DNA from: Escherichia phage VEc74
Sequence record: MT932213.1
Reading direction: 5' to 3' (one strand)
DNA length: 64,000 nucleotides
Position numbers and translations under genes: made by a program. Position 1 is the stretch's first letter, and the number at the start of each line of letters is the position of its first letter. Shown piece by piece: positions 10,704 to 38,178 of the stretch. The notes beneath the pieces were generated by a model that did not search any database, was not told the origin of the DNA, and saw only the letters and a list, made by a program, of their open reading frames with translations.

Positions 10704-10889
10704 TTATAGCGTAATCCATTCTCGTACTGTCTGAGTTACTACACGTTCTCGAAGCTCAACCAGTTCAACGGTAGGAACTGCATAATACCAGTCAGAATGA
10801 TAAGAACCTGAGCGAGATTCATTTACAGCCACATGTACATTATGTTTTGGACTAAAAATAAACACACTGACGATATTGGCATTTACCAT
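10704..10889 (-). CDS. Hypothetical small protein
   Basis: ORF track. Confidence 0.3.
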   Translation of the reverse strand: MVNANIVSVFIFSPKHNVHVAVNESRSGSYHSDWYYAVPTVELVELRERVVTQTVREWITL

Positions 10890-11036
10890 CTTGCACCCAG
10901 TCTTCTATTTCGATAGGTTTAAGATAATCGGAAAAATCGAAATCATAGTTTTCTGAAAATGCATCGTGGTCTTCGATGATTTCGCTCAGAACTGCATCAA
11001 CATCTAATTTATTTTCAATAGTCATTTTTTCACCAA

Positions 11037-11686: not shown

Positions 11687-11929
11687 TTATTCCTTAATTC
11701 CTAGTACTTGTTTAAAAGTCTCGTCGTAATCAAGACTTTGGCCCGTTTGTTCTTTATGTTTGTATATAATATCACTTACTTCTGATAGCATATTTTTATA
11801 TGAACGAGTTAAAGCAGATTTAAGCACGCTGTATCTATCAGGAAATTTACCATGTTCATTATAATAAGCTATTGCTAATTCACGGACTGCCTTTTCAGCA
11901 GTCTCCATATATTCTTTACGCTTGGTCAT
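11687..11929 (-). CDS. Hypothetical protein (start at internal ATG 11929)
   Basis: ORF track 11687..12070 trimmed; [23 protein letters not shown]... Confidence 0.45.
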
Positions 11930-12230
11930 TTTCTTCTCGGTCAAATCGGTGTTTACAATGGCGACATTTATAACGAAGATTATTAGTCTGCCAATGGACC
12001 AATTGCACCTGTTCAGTTCCACATTCAGGGCAATTAGGAACGTTTTTAGAAGCGCGTTCGCGGCGTTCAACCATGACCATTACAGAATCCCAATTAATAG
12101 GGCTGCTATAATCATCACAACCATGAATCTTTCCACGCATTTCCAAATCGTCTTCTTCACCAGCCATAATAATTTTAATTAGACTAGAATTACTTGAAGC
12201 TGCAATGTCTTCTAATAGACGCTTTTTCAT
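11916..12230 (-). CDS. Zinc-ribbon protein
   Basis: Two CxxC pairs (CPECGTEQ ... CRHCKH). Confidence 0.5.
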
Positions 12231-18724: not shown

Positions 18725-19738
18725 TCATTTATAATAACTTCGGTGGTTTTCAAGATAAACCTTCTCAAGGAAGTCATCCCAAAAACCCATGTCTACTTTT
18801 TGCTGCATACCGTTCTTAGAAGCTTCAGTAGATGCTGCTTCTACTTGATCGACCACATCTTCCAAAAACTCTTGAACCGTTTTAAATGGATGTTTACCCA
18901 ACTTCACGTCGAGAATAAATGGAGCGTCTTGAAGTGGATAAACCAAGTCACCAGTTTTGTAAATTTCCAATAGTTGAAGTCCACCACGACAAGCATGGCT
19001 CAGAGCTTTCCAGTCAATACCTTCGTTGGCTTCGGCCTTACGGGCACGTTCACCATATTCAGCATCTAATTTGTTCAGTGACTGCTTAAGCTCAATAAGA
19101 GAAAGCGTTGTCTGATATTTACGACCCAACACAGTGTAGAACGTTTGTGGGCCTGTTTTCTCATGATTATGGAACACCCATTCACAGAATTCGTTTTCTG
19201 GAAGACGATGCTTAATATCTTCAACTTTAGTACGACGCTGCTTAATGGAACCGTCTTCTTGGTAATCAACCCATTGCTCAGGGATTTGATTAACTACTTT
19301 CAATACATCACGTAATGCAGCCAAACGAGAACCCTTGACCCCGTATTTAGAAGCTTGCTTACGGACATATCCTAAATAGGATTTCATGTTAGTCGTATAA
19401 AAACGAGAACGGTTGTCTTGAATAAACTTCCACACATCAGGCAAATCAGATTTAACCATTAGTTCAGGTGGAGTGTGAAGCATATCTAATGCTACGGTTT
19501 CACCATCTGCTGCTAATTTAAAGAAATATTTAAGACTGTATAGTTCATGGTCAATATCATCTTTAGTGTTTTTAGATGATGTGTTGTTAGTGTTTTTACT
19601 CATGTGCTCTTTGACATTTCCGATAAGAATATCACGAGCAGGAGGAACAAAAATTTCTTTAAAATCTACATCAGATTCTGGGGTAGAAGTTCCATAAAGA
19701 TGACTACCAAAATAGCTTTTCATTACTGTTTTCATCAT
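18725..19738 (-). CDS. Pol-beta-superfamily nucleotidyltransferase
   Basis: GSHLYGTSTPESDVDF (G-S...D-x-D) nucleotidyltransferase signature plus downstream acidic residue (ETVALDMLH); 337 aa. Confidence 0.65.
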   Translation of the reverse strand: MMKTVMKSYFGSHLYGTSTPESDVDFKEIFVPPARDILIGNVKEHMSKNTNNTSSKNTKDDIDHELYSLKYFFKLAADGETVALDMLHTPPELMVKSDLPDVWKFIQDNRSRFYTTNMKSYLGYVRKQASKYGVKGSRLAALRDVLKVVNQIPEQWVDYQEDGSIKQRRTKVEDIKHRLPENEFCEWVFHNHEKTGPQTFYTVLGRKYQTTLSLIELKQSLNKLDAEYGERARKAEANEGIDWKALSHACRGGLQLLEIYKTGDLVYPLQDAPFILDVKLGKHPFKTVQEFLEDVVDQVEAASTEASKNGMQQKVDMGFWDDFLEKVYLENHRSYYK

Positions 19739-20196
19739 TCAGCCTTATATTCAATAACAGGACATACTTTAGCTTTACGAGCTTTTAAAAATTCGACGAT
19801 AATCGATTTCTTGGGTTGAATAGGAGGTAAACCTTTATACGCCCTATCAATATTTTCTACGTGTAAAGCATAATCCTTTTTCCATTTATAGTCTTTATAT
19901 TTTTCATGCAAATGTGCAGGAATAACAAATGAACCGATAATAAGTAAAACAACCAAAAGCGCAAGTATAAATGCCGATGGAAGAAGAGTCCATAAACTAC
20001 CGAAAATAAGCCAACGTTGTAGGCTTTCTGCACAAATAATTGTTAGCCCTACGAGTATAGCACACCCAAAAATAGAAACGAAAAATGTAGGAATGGCAAT
20101 AGACCAAAAATATGCGCATAGTGTCTTAGGTCGTTGCCATTCATCGTTAAACAATTTGAATAATTTATAGTGCCAAGAGTTTTCATTAATAATCAT
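19735..20196 (-). CDS. Integral membrane protein (multi-TM)
   Basis: Several long hydrophobic stretches (FWSIAIPTFFVSIFGCAILVGLTIICA; FILALLVVLLIIGSFVI). Confidence 0.5.
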   Translation of the reverse strand: MIINENSWHYKLFKLFNDEWQRPKTLCAYFWSIAIPTFFVSIFGCAILVGLTIICAESLQRWLIFGSLWTLLPSAFILALLVVLLIIGSFVIPAHLHEKYKDYKWKKDYALHVENIDRAYKGLPPIQPKKSIIVEFLKARKAKVCPVIEYKAE

Positions 20197-20198
20197 AA

Positions 20199-20720
20199 TT
20201 ATCCTTTCATTGAAGGCGTAACGGTTGTTAAATACTTAATCATAGCTTCAGCTTCTGATTTTGATAATGAAATTTCTCCATTGTTTTGACGAATAGAAAT
20301 AAAATCCGGATGACGGTCACCACCAGCTTTTAAAACACACATATAAGTATCAGTTTCATCTTCAATATCTGAAATGATTGAAGCAGTTCCACACGAATGT
20401 GGTTTTTGATAAATCAATACAGCTTTTCTTCCACCGTTTGACTGTTCATAAACTTTTAACACATCAAACAAATCACTTCTTTTATCAATAGCTAAGATGT
20501 TGTTTTCATCTTCAATATTAAATCCTTCGGATACTTCATAAAGTGTCACCCATAAATCACCTATATCGATAGTAGCATTTTCCTTTCCATGACTTTCAAG
20601 AGCATGACAAATTTTCTTAATTTCGTCATAACTCATTTTAATAATATCATCTCCTTGACTAAGGAAGATGTCATTTTTAAATTCAACACGAATTAAACCG
20701 CTTCCACTTGAAATAAACAT
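20199..20720 (-). CDS. Hypothetical protein, tandem paralog A
   Basis: C-terminus ISLSKSEAEAMIKYLTTVTPSM resembles that of 20727..21284. Confidence 0.55.
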   Translation of the reverse strand: MFISSGSGLIRVEFKNDIFLSQGDDIIKMSYDEIKKICHALESHGKENATIDIGDLWVTLYEVSEGFNIEDENNILAIDKRSDLFDVLKVYEQSNGGRKAVLIYQKPHSCGTASIISDIEDETDTYMCVLKAGGDRHPDFISIRQNNGEISLSKSEAEAMIKYLTTVTPSMKG

Positions 20721-20726
20721 ATTTCC

Positions 20727-21284
20727 TCACTTTGAAATCATAGTTGGAATAACAGAATCAAGATAAGTTTTTAGTGCAATAGCTTCGTCTTTGTTTAATG
20801 TAATGATATGTGATCGAAAATCGTCAATTTGACGAATAGATACTATATTTCCCTCTTCATAGCATTTTGACACATTTAAAATAGTTTCATCATTATGATT
20901 ACAGGAGTTAGTAATAATAGCATTACATTTTTTAAACCATTTTAAATTATGTTTTATTTTAGTAGAATCATAAAAATATTTAATGTTAGTTATAAAATTA
21001 TCCCAATTATTAATTGATAAGCACATTGACTCGCTTTTAATATTAAATCCTGGGCATGAAGAATAAAAATGAATTTTATGCTCATCATTAATGCTTACAA
21101 TTTTATCAGTGTAAGCATATTCAATTTGGGTTAAACGAACAATTTCGCTAAGCGTAAAATATAACATGTCATCTTCTTGCGTCAAACGATACATGTTATT
21201 TACTTTTTCTATAGCCAATTCACCAAAAAGTGGACTAACTTCTAATACTAATCGTTTCATATTGATTCTCTTCGACTCGCTCAC
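20727..21284 (-). CDS. Hypothetical protein, tandem paralog B (GTG start in ORF track)
   Basis: C-terminus ITLNKDEAIALKTYLDSVIPTM; AGGAG SD 9 nt upstream of GTG. Confidence 0.55.
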   Translation of the reverse strand: MSESKRINMKRLVLEVSPLFGELAIEKVNNMYRLTQEDDMLYFTLSEIVRLTQIEYAYTDKIVSINDEHKIHFYSSCPGFNIKSESMCLSINNWDNFITNIKYFYDSTKIKHNLKWFKKCNAIITNSCNHNDETILNVSKCYEEGNIVSIRQIDDFRSHIITLNKDEAIALKTYLDSVIPTMISK

Positions 21285-27407: not shown

Positions 27408-27737
27408 TCAATTAGAAAATAAATTTATCCAAGATTGTTCTTTAATTAAAAATGGCTCAGAATCATATGCCATTAAACTCTGTGTGATTAGTCCTTTAAA
27501 AGGCCCATCAATAAATTCCATGGTAAAATATGGAATTTTATTCATTAGCCGTGCATTAGGAGCAGTGCACAAAACTCTGCATCCTTTGAATACACCTTTT
27601 TGTAATTTGTATTGTTTGGGATAAAATTCGCTTAAAATGTTGTTATTTGCCAAAATTTCAAAATGATTCACCAATTTATTTTTAATAGTTTTTGGCGAAA
27701 AATAAAGATATTCGAAAAGCTGAGTGTCTGTCATCAT
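27408..27737 (-). CDS. Hypothetical protein (vs.7 position)
   Basis: ORF track trimmed to internal ATG. Confidence 0.4.
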
Positions 27738-28321
27738 TGCATTCCAATTACGAAAAACTGTGGACGAGTAATACCACCAATACAACATTTAATATTACAG
27801 CAGCAGTGTACAGTGTCAATATGGACACTATAAATCTTATCCATATCAGGAGATTTGACAGGCTCATCAATTATATATAAAATTCGCGAAAGCGATAAAC
27901 CTCTGAACTTGCTTCCTTTATTACCAATAAAACTGCGCACAGAATCAGTAAATAAACGAAAACGTATATCATCATTAGAATAACGCGAAAATTCCTTTTT
28001 AATGTTATTTGCAGAAATTTTAGCGTAAGCTGAAGTATTAGAAAGAACAATAACTGTTCCGCCATCATACAACCAATTAGCAGCAAAGTTAGTCACAGCA
28101 ATTGATTTACCGGATTGACGTCCACCATCTAGTCGAAGTGTACAATACTGTTTAAGTAAGTCTTCAAATGGCGGGATATATTCGTTTTTACAAATTTCTT
28201 CTACTCTAGCATCAGAATGGTGTGTAAAAGCATTCATCAGGGATAGATAAGGACCAGTTAAAAATGTTCTCATTTTATTCTCTCTAAATTTGGGCCATTC
28301 CATGGCGCATGAATTGTCCAT
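27734..28321 (-). CDS. P-loop NTPase-like protein (vs.8 position)
   Basis: Walker A-like GGRQSGKS; ATG at 28321 lies inside repeat copy 1. Confidence 0.5.
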   Translation of the reverse strand: MDNSCAMEWPKFRENKMRTFLTGPYLSLMNAFTHHSDARVEEICKNEYIPPFEDLLKQYCTLRLDGGRQSGKSIAVTNFAANWLYDGGTVIVLSNTSAYAKISANNIKKEFSRYSNDDIRFRLFTDSVRSFIGNKGSKFRGLSLSRILYIIDEPVKSPDMDKIYSVHIDTVHCCCNIKCCIGGITRPQFFVIGMQ

Positions 28322-28341
28322 TTCTGTATTTACCCATTACC
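28292..28341 (-). repeat. Direct repeat copy 1 (carries the start codon of 27734..28321)
   Basis: 31-nt core gaattgtccatttctgtatttacccattacc repeated 29/31 at 28947..28977. Confidence 0.6.
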
Positions 28342-28414
28342 GCACTTGGGCTCGACCTTATTACAGGTTGGCGGGAATCCCTCACAGAATCATGAGGTCC
28401 AGGTTGTTCCCATG

Positions 28415-28888
28415 TTATTTGAACGATTTAACGTACTGAATAGAACCTTTACTATTCACAAAGGCAATTTTACCATTTTTGTTATACATAGTAGCAGTAC
28501 GTTGATAGCCATAAGTTTGCTTACCAGATTGATAACCAACTAATGCAAAATTATCTTCACCCATTTTATTCTGTTTAGCGCGAATGCGTTCATGACCATG
28601 TGCCATAAGAACCTTAGCATCACCAGTTGCAATGGATCGACGAGTTTTTTCATCTTCAACTGTATTAACAAAGTCGTCAAATGAATCAAATTTAGCATGA
28701 GATTTATTATACAGTTTTCCATCTACTGCATAATTATATCCTTGTACATCCATCTCAACTTCTGTACCATCATCTAATACAGCAGTAATTTTCTGTCCTT
28801 TTTTAAATTTCAAAAGATCAGTAAAAGATTCAGCAATAATTTGAGAATTAATAGCTGCCTCAGTAATAAATTCTTGATATGTTTTCAT
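28415..28888 (-). CDS. Internal-protein-like capsid-targeted protein (CTS leader MKTYQEFITEA)
   Basis: N-terminus matches the T4 internal-protein capsid-targeting sequence with L/I-x-E cleavage context. Confidence 0.65.
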   Translation of the reverse strand: MKTYQEFITEAAINSQIIAESFTDLLKFKKGQKITAVLDDGTEVEMDVQGYNYAVDGKLYNKSHAKFDSFDDFVNTVEDEKTRRSIATGDAKVLMAHGHERIRAKQNKMGEDNFALVGYQSGKQTYGYQRTATMYNKNGKIAFVNSKGSIQYVKSFK

Positions 28889-28929
28889 GTATATCCTTTA
28901 AATGTAAATAGTTTTATTCTTTAAGTTTT

Positions 28930-28977
28930 GGACAATTCATGCGTGTGAATTGTCCGTTTCTATATTTACCCATTACC
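28930..28977 (-). repeat. Direct repeat copy 2 with perfect palindrome ggacaattca/tgaattgtcc; start codon position reads ACG
   Basis: 28947..28977 is 29/31 identical to copy 1; 28930..28955 forms a 10-bp-stem hairpin. Confidence 0.6.
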
Positions 28978-28996
28978 AGGTTCGAACTCGGCTTTA

Positions 28997-29561
28997 TTAA
29001 GAATTACCGCGGGCTGCATTAGCAACGGCGTAAGCGTACTGAACATTAGCGTCTTTAAACGTACCTTTAGAGGTATCTAGTTCTGCCTTAAAGCCACCTT
29101 TAGTCATAACCTCGGCGAATTCTTTACGGAAAGCCATTGCATCAAGACTTCTCCATGATGATTTGTGCTTGGCGAATTCAAGACCAGCGTAGTTGACAGC
29201 CTTAGCTAATTTATTATCAATAACCCATTTACCAGCTTTAGGCACAAACACCGGGCCTTTCTGTTTAGAGAACAGTTTTAAATTCCAGCGACGAAGGTCA
29301 CCGTCGGCTTTAACAAAAGCTGCGTCTAAGTTACTAGCAACAACATCCTGAATATGGCCAAATTTAAGCCCATCAACTTCAATATTTAGATCGGTACGCC
29401 AGCGAAGTCCTTCCCAAGCGAAAGCTTTAAAGTCGGAAGCCTTTGTAGCTAAGTACCGTTCAATAGGAGCCGTTTCCCGATCGATAGGTCCACTCATCTT
29501 TATTAATGCCTTTGGCCTTTTCCACAGAAGCTTCAGCGATAAATTCTTTATACGTTTTCAT
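28997..29561 (-). pseudogene. Internal-protein-like gene with frameshift between CTS leader and body (or sequencing indel)
   Basis: ATG at 29561 encodes MKTYKEFIAEASVEKAKGINKDEW... which stops after 33 codons; the 166-aa body (28997..29497) is in the -1 frame and that frame is open across the junction. Confidence 0.45.
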
Positions 29562-29577
29562 GTGTTTCCTTTAATTT

Positions 29578-29895
29578 TTATTCTTTAGGGAAGTTTTTAG
29601 AATATGCATCATAAAGCTTATTTCCAATACGGCGGAAAACTCTAGCCGCAAAACGATTTTCTGGGTTTTTAATCATGATTTGCATCATATAAGTACCCGC
29701 GTCAGAAAGAGCTTCTTCATAGTACCCATTAATTTCTTTAAGAGTCCTACGTTTACCACCAGGACCATCAACAGTGATTTTCCATTTACCTGTAGAAGTG
29801 CGACTTGGCGGCTCAACTTGTTCAATCCAGATATAACCACCTTCTACACGTTGTCCTGCAGCAGATTCTGCAATAAATTCTTGATAGGTTTTCAT
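29578..29895 (-). CDS. Internal-protein-like capsid-targeted protein (CTS leader MKTYQEFIAES)
   Basis: 105 aa, basic; CTS leader; own early promoter. Confidence 0.65.
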   Translation of the reverse strand: MKTYQEFIAESAAGQRVEGGYIWIEQVEPPSRTSTGKWKITVDGPGGKRRTLKEINGYYEEALSDAGTYMMQIMIKNPENRFAARVFRRIGNKLYDAYSKNFPKE

Positions 29896-29944
29896 GTGTT
29901 TCCTTTAAATATTTTAATTAGTAATTTGTCTCTTCAAGTAACTG

Positions 29945-29983: not shown

Positions 29984-30952
<969 letters not shown>

Positions 30953-37208: not shown

Positions 37209-37517
37209 CTATTTTATTCCGCGTGATGCAATTGTGTTCTGCCGTTTAACGCCAGTTTGTTTAAAGTCATGATTGTCGATTTGATCGGTACGAGCAACTC
37301 CGAATGATGATTTGATCTTAGCTTTAGATCCTTTAGTTATAGAAATAAACATCTCGGAAGCCCCTTTCTTAAAGTCCGAGGCGATTACTTCAACGCCGTT
37401 CTTAGCAAGTGACTTCAGAATTGCCTCCGCATACTCATCATCAAGACTCGCCTGAGTATTAATAACGAATGTCTTTGGCGCAGCCGCTTCATTGATAAAT
37501 TCTTTAAATGTTTTCAT
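37209..37517 (-). CDS. Internal-protein-like capsid-targeted protein (CTS MKTFKEFINEA)
   Basis: 102 aa; CTS leader; own promoter. Confidence 0.6.
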   Translation of the reverse strand: MKTFKEFINEAAAPKTFVINTQASLDDEYAEAILKSLAKNGVEVIASDFKKGASEMFISITKGSKAKIKSSFGVARTDQIDNHDFKQTGVKRQNTIASRGIK

Positions 37518-37539
37518 TTTATTTTCCTAATTAATTTTG

Positions 37540-37580
37540 ATGAGATAATAGTATCACTACCCTATTTAAAAGTAAACTCA
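37540..37580 (-). promoter_or_regulatory. T4-type early promoter (cassette 3)
   Basis: minus-strand GTTTAC (plus 37572..37577), TGATACTAT. Confidence 0.5.
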
Positions 37581-37850
37581 TTTTAAATAAATTGCGTATT
37601 TTTTATAACCCGCTGACTCATGACGAAGACCCTTATCATTAGCAAAACGCTCAATGTTGTTAATTTGATTCTGATCAAGTTCAGAGATGTCAAACACGAA
37701 AAAGTTACGTTTGTTACCAACTGTTATATAGTCAGTTAAATCAATATCATATAGGTAATTGATGTCAGCAATCAAAGTCTTGACAGCTTTGCTAATTTTT
37801 ACTTTTTCGTTAAAAGCAGCTTCAGCAATAAATTCTTGATACGTTTTCAT
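37578..37850 (-). CDS. Internal-protein-like capsid-targeted protein (CTS MKTYQEFIAEA)
   Basis: ORF track 37578..37910 trimmed to ATG 37850 where the canonical CTS begins, with GAGGAG SD. Confidence 0.6.
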   Translation of the reverse strand: MKTYQEFIAEAAFNEKVKISKAVKTLIADINYLYDIDLTDYITVGNKRNFFVFDISELDQNQINNIERFANDKGLRHESAGYKKYAIYLK

Positions 37851-37874
37851 TTTATTCTCCTCAGTAGTTGATAG

Positions 37875-37912
37875 GATAATAGTATCACTACTAAAACCCC
37901 GTGTAAACAACT
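37875..37912 (-). promoter_or_regulatory. T4-type early promoter (cassette 4)
   Basis: minus-strand GTTTAC (plus 37903..37908), TGATACTAT. Confidence 0.5.
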
Positions 37913-37920
37913 TTGTGAAA

Positions 37921-38178
37921 TTATTTTAAATCTTCTAATCGTTTCTTCATCTTAGAACCGTTCTTAGCGATTTCGCCTGCATCAGAGCATAATGCTAAAA
38001 GCGCTTTAACTTTAGTTTGGTCTCCTTTAAAAGATGAAGGATCAACAGCAGCAGCAAGTTCTTTAATACGAGAGAAAAGACGCTCAGCTTCAGCTAAAGC
38101 CATTCCAAGCTTTACTTCCATACCGTGGGAAGATTCAGTAATAGTAGTTTTTGTAGCAAACTCTTTGAAAGTTTTCAT
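37921..38178 (-). CDS. Internal-protein-like capsid-targeted protein (variant CTS MKTFKEFATK...ITES)
   Basis: 85 aa; N-terminus related to CTS; own promoter. Confidence 0.55.
   Translation of the reverse strand: MKTFKEFATKTTITESSHGMEVKLGMALAEAERLFSRIKELAAAVDPSSFKGDQTKVKALLALCSDAGEIAKNGSKMKKRLEDLK

Follow-up and report, generated by a model that had tools for sequence, protein, structure and literature searches.

The DNA analysed here (the window) is a 64,000-nt stretch of Escherichia phage VEc74 (MT932213.1), a Tequatrovirus (T4/T2-like) in which a 24-kb stretch matches T2, teqhad, PST and further phages at 96–97% identity (97% for T2), no record being identical to it. On the minus strand, the lysozyme gene e is followed by a 105-aa gene bearing a capsid targeting sequence (CTS), the locus studied here, an Ip4-type gene and vs.8, in this order (Table 1). 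The locus holds two ORFs, and both stand where the first-pass annotation had placed them: a CTS leader ORF, confirmed in coordinates and translation, which starts at a minus-strand ATG at 29561 and runs for 33 codons to a stop at 29462–29460, and a 166-aa ORF (28997..29497) in the adjacent frame, which is open from 29557 through the entire junction. The arrangement had been labelled a −1 frameshift. This label is wrong: as the two ATGs lie 64 nt apart (64 mod 3 = 1), the body is shifted by +1 against the leader. The leader ORF encodes MKTYKEFIAEASVEKAKGINKDEWTYRSGNGSY before its stop, that is, the 10-residue CTS, 21 further IpIII residues and then SY. It has the CTS and the cleavage site of T4 IpIII (MKTYKEFIAE, then A; 29561–29529), the CTS being defined by the first 10 IPIII residues, which are sufficient for packaging (PMC9026906). 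The SD duplex at the ipIII start (−5.6 kcal/mol) is typical of genes in the window.

Table 1. Features at and around the ipIII locus of VEc74 (positions in the window).
Feature	Position	Strand	Remark
Lysozyme gene e	29984–30478	−	upstream of the internal-protein cassette array
Upstream neighbour, 105-aa CTS-bearing gene	29578..29895	−	intact; phrog_3966
Spacer with the ipIII ribosome-binding site (RBS) AAAGGAAACAC	29562..29577	−	belongs to the 55-nt 5′ module of three CTS genes
CTS MKTYKEFIAE	29532..29561	−	gp21 protease cleavage motif I-A-E, then A
Leader ORF	29460..29561	−	33 codons and stop; IpIII precursor residues 1–31, then out-of-frame Ser-Tyr-stop
Internal ATG and 8 codons (MSGPIDRET)	29471..29497	−	IpIII codons 22–31 read out of frame; non-homologous protein sequence
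Retained repeat copy AAACGGCT	29468..29475	−	junction 29468/29467
IpIII residues 37–193 and stop	28997..29470	−	intact in the +1 frame; PHROG 5341 match
12-bp palindromic hairpin	28929..28956		just downstream of the ipIII stop; part of the 59-nt 3′ module
Downstream neighbour, 157-aa CTS-bearing gene	28415..28888	−	intact; Ip4-type, DUF7412, phrog_3155; T2 annotation ip4
vs.8	27734–28321	−	beyond the Ip4-type gene
55-nt 5′ modules (repeat family D1)	28852–28906, 29525–29579, 29859–29913		CTS genes downstream of e
59-nt 3′ modules	28305–28363, 28941–28999		common to ipIII and the Ip4-type gene

The leader matches PHROG 5341 (phrog_5341, 'internal virion protein') at positions 1–31 (E = 1.2e-14) and the body matches the same profile at positions 32–192 (E = 9e-96). 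As leader and body tile one profile end to end, the two-ORF arrangement is not a product of chance. Homology to IpIII extends over the whole length, with 88–95% DNA identity to annotated ipIII genes. Database homologs carry PF26861 (Phage_T4_IpIII) in precomputed annotations; a Pfam scan of both halves and of an intact ortholog gave no match with a Pfam set that does not include the PF26861 model. The position in the cassette array downstream of e is also that of an internal protein gene, the arrangement being the same as in ECO07P2, W143, LYE-01 and KIT06. In these four phages and in T4, the ipIII orthologs are single ORFs of 579–582 nt annotated as internal protein III. Whereas a precursor of ∼190 aa would join CTS and mature domain in one continuous frame, VEc74 has a stop after codon 33 and the remainder in the +1 frame. 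Homology and position identify the locus as ipIII, the gene for internal head protein III of the T4 type, in two halves. The 166-aa body of the first-pass annotation is a real ORF, but its first nine codons (MSGPIDRET) are …DEWTYRSGNG misread out of frame, and genuine IpIII homology in the body frame begins only at the Ala codon at 29470–29468.

The three CTS genes downstream of e start with a common 55-nt 5′ module (RBS and CTS codons), 76–85% identical among them. Together with the 3′ modules, these shared flanks look like substrates for cassette shuffling among relatives. Cassette arrangements observed among relatives are 105–Ip4, 105–ipIII–Ip4, 105–ipIII–ipII, ipIII–ipII and Ip4. No T4 late promoter (TATAAATA) was found directly upstream of ipIII, and the window-wide count of such matches equals chance; the nearest ones lie upstream of e, at 30492–30512. 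A second CTS cluster on the minus strand (37209–38178) consists of ORFs of 102, 90 and 85 aa that start with MKTFKEF or MKTYQEF. It occupies the T2 ip7/ip5 position, adjoining 57B. With the broken ipIII included, the window holds six CTS ORFs.

The 17-nt deletion and its flanking repeats

A single-base indel, one of the options raised in the first-pass annotation, was not borne out by alignment of the locus with T4, Lutter, ECO07P2, W143, LYE-01, KIT06 and NC-G, which instead revealed a 17-nt deletion flanked by direct repeats. From ATG to stop, ipIII measures 565 nt here versus 582 nt in T4, with a single alignment gap. The deleted segment, TTGACCCTAAAACAGCT, comprises 17 nt in the region of codons 32–37: T4 and Lutter read …GGAAACGGCT TTGACCCTAAAACAGCT CCTATTGAACG…, whereas VEc74 reads …GGAAACGGCT CCTATTGAACG…. 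Up to the junction, over the first 94 nt of ipIII, Lutter and VEc74 do not differ at a single DNA position, so the event amounts to the loss of these 17 nt and nothing else. In-silico reinsertion of the 17 nt restored a 582-nt ORF encoding a 193-aa IpIII, which is identical to the nearest intact cluster representative at 189 of 193 residues and to T4 IpIII at 178 of 193.

Two imperfect direct repeats of 8 nt, AAACGGCT and AAACAGCT, frame the deletion; they match at seven of eight positions and, in the intact allele, lie 17 nt apart from start to start with 9 nt between them. Intact alleles have the order AAACGGCT-TTGACCCTA-AAACAGCT-CCTATTG and VEc74 has AAACGGCT-CCTATTG. The direct repeats of the intact allele thus delimit the deleted segment and the mutant keeps one copy, the pattern looked for in slippage or microhomology events. 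Because of an exact GCT microhomology (29470–29468), the position of the junction is ambiguous by 3 nt. A homopolymer error would appear as a change of 1–2 nt in a mononucleotide run, whereas the ipIII lesion is 17 nt long and of mixed sequence.

Length varies naturally at the deletion site, by −3 nt in ECO07P2 and by +18 nt in NC-G. The IpIII gene of NC-G, a Dhakavirus (locus L008, 680–1276), carries an in-frame 18-nt duplication of a GNG(F/V)D unit exactly where VEc74 has its deletion, which supports the short repeat as a slippage hotspot. The site is also a possible mosaic breakpoint: on the 5′ side of the junction VEc74 does not differ from Lutter, on the 3′ side it resembles ECO07P2, and it first departs from Lutter 10 nt past the junction. 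With sparse differences and noisy MAFFT gap placement, this pattern is suggestive of a deletion that may have occurred at a mosaic recombination breakpoint.

Age of the lesion and trust in the consensus

The first-pass annotation had asked for a comparison with orthologs. Of the 228 phage records covering the junction, not one has the deletion. The same interval is 135–138 nt long in these relatives (156 nt in three records) versus 121 nt in VEc74, so that all 228 carry 14–17 nt of extra sequence (35 nt in the three). A search of IMG/VR with the exact junction, GGAAACGGCYCCTATTGAACG, returned no match, and the 166-aa product was absent from the public gene index and from public assemblies. Contigs encoding identical neighbour proteins either had no ipIII or belonged to a different phage; no independent assembly of VEc74 was found among them. 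Compared with its closest relative, ECO07P2, the body differs by 13 synonymous and no non-synonymous changes, with 157 aa identical and no further stops. This ratio indicates that the divergence arose under purifying selection. The frame break would be either the latest step, of very recent date, or an artefact. Taken alone, the undecayed body would fit equally well with a very recent mutation, with an artefact or with continued selection on the body.

Of the three options offered by the first-pass annotation, a recently inactivated internal protein gene is the best supported, the lesion being private to VEc74 and the body being without relaxed constraint. In the assembled sequence analysed here, the locus is probably a recent loss-of-function allele of ipIII that arose by slippage or microhomology deletion. 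The 17-nt segment would have been lost between the imperfect 8-nt repeats, by replication slippage or by microhomology-mediated (misaligned) recombination, and its loss would move the reading frame by +1. Ribosomes starting from the normal, well-placed RBS would then yield only a 33-residue peptide (the CTS, 21 IpIII residues and SY), and the remaining 157 IpIII codons would be uncoupled from the targeting sequence. T4 IpIII is packaged into the head in about 300 copies and is injected with the DNA. With the CTS no longer joined to the mature domain, IPIII is predicted to be absent from VEc74 virions.

Alternatively, the deletion might be an artefact of assembly, consensus or sequencing, or a minority deletion variant picked by the assembler, in which case the real phage would carry an intact 582-nt ipIII. 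We consider this unlikely, although the uniqueness of the lesion among the 228 records, a 166-aa product found in no public assembly and the complete lack of non-synonymous change in the body all speak for it. Base-calling or polishing errors do not typically remove 17 nt of non-homopolymeric sequence bounded exactly by direct repeats, which is a biological footprint. The quality of the surrounding sequence also argues against an artefact. With T2 as a yardstick across the window, essential structural genes showed only intergenic or compensated indels and no uncompensated frameshifts, indicating that the assembly is not generally indel-ridden. Only two broken genes were found among comparable T2 ORFs across the window, fewer than in the curated T2 genome. 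In the homologous region of T2 itself, at least four accessory genes are annotated as split, so such splits are normal in T-even genomes, and most of the frame-changing differences in accessory genes between the two phages are T2's own annotated split genes. The genes split in T2, nrdC.2, mobD.1, RB32ORF097c and vs.8, are single intact ORFs in VEc74 (11916–12230, 19735–21284 and 27734–28321).

Trust in the consensus is somewhat lowered by gene 49.2, where the reading frame is broken once more by a change that is private to VEc74 and of the homopolymer type (TTTT to TTTTT). This gene (10704–11025, minus strand) encodes 106 aa in T2 and T4 and is split here into ORFs of 57 aa (10852–11025) and 61 aa (10704–10889). 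The break comes from the additional T near 10854, a base that all 251 phage records spanning the site are without. Either gene 49.2 is another pseudogene private to VEc74, or the fifth T is a sequencing error in a homopolymer; this signature keeps an artefact alive as a hypothesis for ipIII.

Fate of the uncoupled body

The first-pass annotation had also raised the option that translation of the body now starts at the internal ATG and yields a cytoplasmic protein. We found no positive support for this option: the ATG is incidental, its SD pairing is weak and no CTS-less family is known from our searches. If the deletion is real, the body could still be made from ATG 29497 or by re-initiation, giving a CTS-less cytoplasmic IpIII and a separate 33-aa CTS peptide, an outcome that we judge improbable. 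Its frame is open from 29557 and holds no further lesions, and with the leader stop 35 nt further on, a terminating ribosome could scan back to ATG 29497, going by the established re-initiation behaviour of bacteria. In addition, CTS-less IPIII in the host cytoplasm rescues ipIII-deleted T4 on E. coli ECOR17 (PMC9391042), so the mature domain can function without being packaged. However, that experiment supplied IPIII before infection (PMC9391042), and a protein made de novo would come later than an injected one. The complementing IPIII in ECOR17 was, moreover, not N-terminally truncated by 26 residues (PMC9391042), whereas the product of ATG 29497 would be without mature residues 1–26 and would start with nine junk residues.

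The start site itself also argues against a cytoplasmic body. ATG 29497 is an incidental out-of-frame triplet within AAA-GAT-GAG-TGG (K-D-E-W). It is present in the intact genes of T4, Lutter and ECO07P2 and missing in those of W143, LYE-01 and KIT06, which indicates that the triplet did not evolve for initiation. Anti-SD pairing at this ATG, from an AAGG about 11 nt upstream, amounts to −3.2 kcal/mol. Measured against 72 gene starts in the window (median −5.9 kcal/mol), this places it among the weakest 19%, and 25% of all ATG triplets do equally well or better. Natural IpIII homologs without a CTS were not found among the full-length cluster representatives, all 11 full-length homolog clusters being 186–200 aa long.

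A full conversion into two products, in which a cytoplasmic CTS-less body would still counter host defence while a free 33-aa CTS peptide enters the prohead, appears no more likely. If true, it would be a natural re-routing of an anti-defence protein from delivery together with the DNA to expression after entry.

Programmed +1 ribosomal frameshifting or other recoding that joins leader and body into a full-length CTS-IpIII was rejected, for want of conservation and of a slippery site, and retains next to no probability: although the two frames overlap by 95 nt and are both open there, the two-frame arrangement is not conserved (all 228 relatives have a single ORF), the 17-nt deletion fully accounts for the change of frame, and the sole shift site that would preserve IpIII, GGC TCC TAT TGA, offers no cognate +1 re-pairing, inspection of this site and of the 95-nt overlap revealing neither a prfB-like SD at the correct distance nor any other dedicated SD-like stimulator. 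Overall, ordinary loss of a dispensable accessory gene, with no new mode of expression for IpIII, is the best reading of the locus.

Probable loss of ipIII in VEc74 and its absence from other T-even phages

The phage would tolerate the loss of ipIII because this cassette is accessory and missing from many T-even phages. The T2 locus runs e, ip4, vs.8, with neither ipIII nor ipII, and in many complete phage genomes that encode identical 105-aa and 157-aa neighbours these two genes are directly adjacent, with no ipIII between them. VEc74 itself retains at least five intact internal-protein genes of the CTS type, three near 37.2–38.2 kb and the two that flank ipIII. Independently split ipIII genes were found in two other assemblies, broken by a 2-nt deletion in a 171-kb NCBI contig (JANPXS010099800.1, GCA_034286715.1; locus L010, 1501–2095) and by a 2-nt insertion in a 145-kb Logan contig (SRR20814965_1633; locus L011, 1501–2075). 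Both lesions lie near codon 95 (…FVKADG…), within about 12 nt of each other. The region around codon 95 may be another place prone to indels; alternatively, the two splits may be assembly errors.

The consequences of losing the gene are known from T4. Mutants in IPI, IPII and IPIII are viable, and IPIII− phage has a burst of about 40% of normal, slower head maturation and more polyheads (PMC9026906). In experimental evolution, three of five T4 populations lost ipIII, and without the gene T4 could not grow on E. coli ECOR17 (PMC9391042). By analogy, the phenotype expected of VEc74 is a smaller burst, an excess of polyheads and no growth on ECOR17. From T4 genetics, a lower burst and slower head assembly would be the only effects on ordinary hosts, and growth would probably be lost on hosts whose defence IPIII counters, for example ECOR17. 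In annotation, two hypothetical proteins should give way to a single ipIII pseudogene or to a flag that calls for resequencing. A recent loss of ipIII would add a further data point to the view of T-even internal-protein genes as expendable cassettes with fast turnover. Only if the physical phage proves to carry the deletion could a natural ipIII-null phage with its other internal proteins intact be a handy host-range tool.

Deletions between short direct repeats are a feature of the classical rII deletion spectra of T4. The VEc74 ipIII lesion resembles them in that the intact allele has two 8-nt repeats of which one copy is kept. It departs from them in that its repeats match at only 7/8 positions and share 3 nt of exact microhomology; slippage and misaligned recombination are the candidate mechanisms suggested by its footprint.

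As a gene, the locus resembles T4 ipIII in its place in the same cassette array downstream of e, here with a 105-aa CTS gene between e and ipIII, in its CTS and, once repaired, in its length. It differs in that the coding sequence is interrupted, with CTS and mature domain in different frames. T2, teqhad and many other natural T-even phages without ipIII make the same point as VEc74, that ipIII is a cassette of gain and loss; in T2-type phages the gene is wholly absent, whereas in VEc74 it is present and broken. The two split alleles from other assemblies are unlike that of VEc74, which lost 17 nt at codon 32, in being broken by 2-nt indels around codon 95. Similar in predicted outcome are the laboratory ipIII nulls of T4 (amber IPIII−, Δe-ipIII-ipII and evolved deletion clones), which are viable T-even phages lacking IPIII, as VEc74 would be. 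Those nulls, whether engineered or obtained by selection, consist of amber point mutations or kilobase deletions, whereas the VEc74 allele is a small and apparently spontaneous frameshift deletion.
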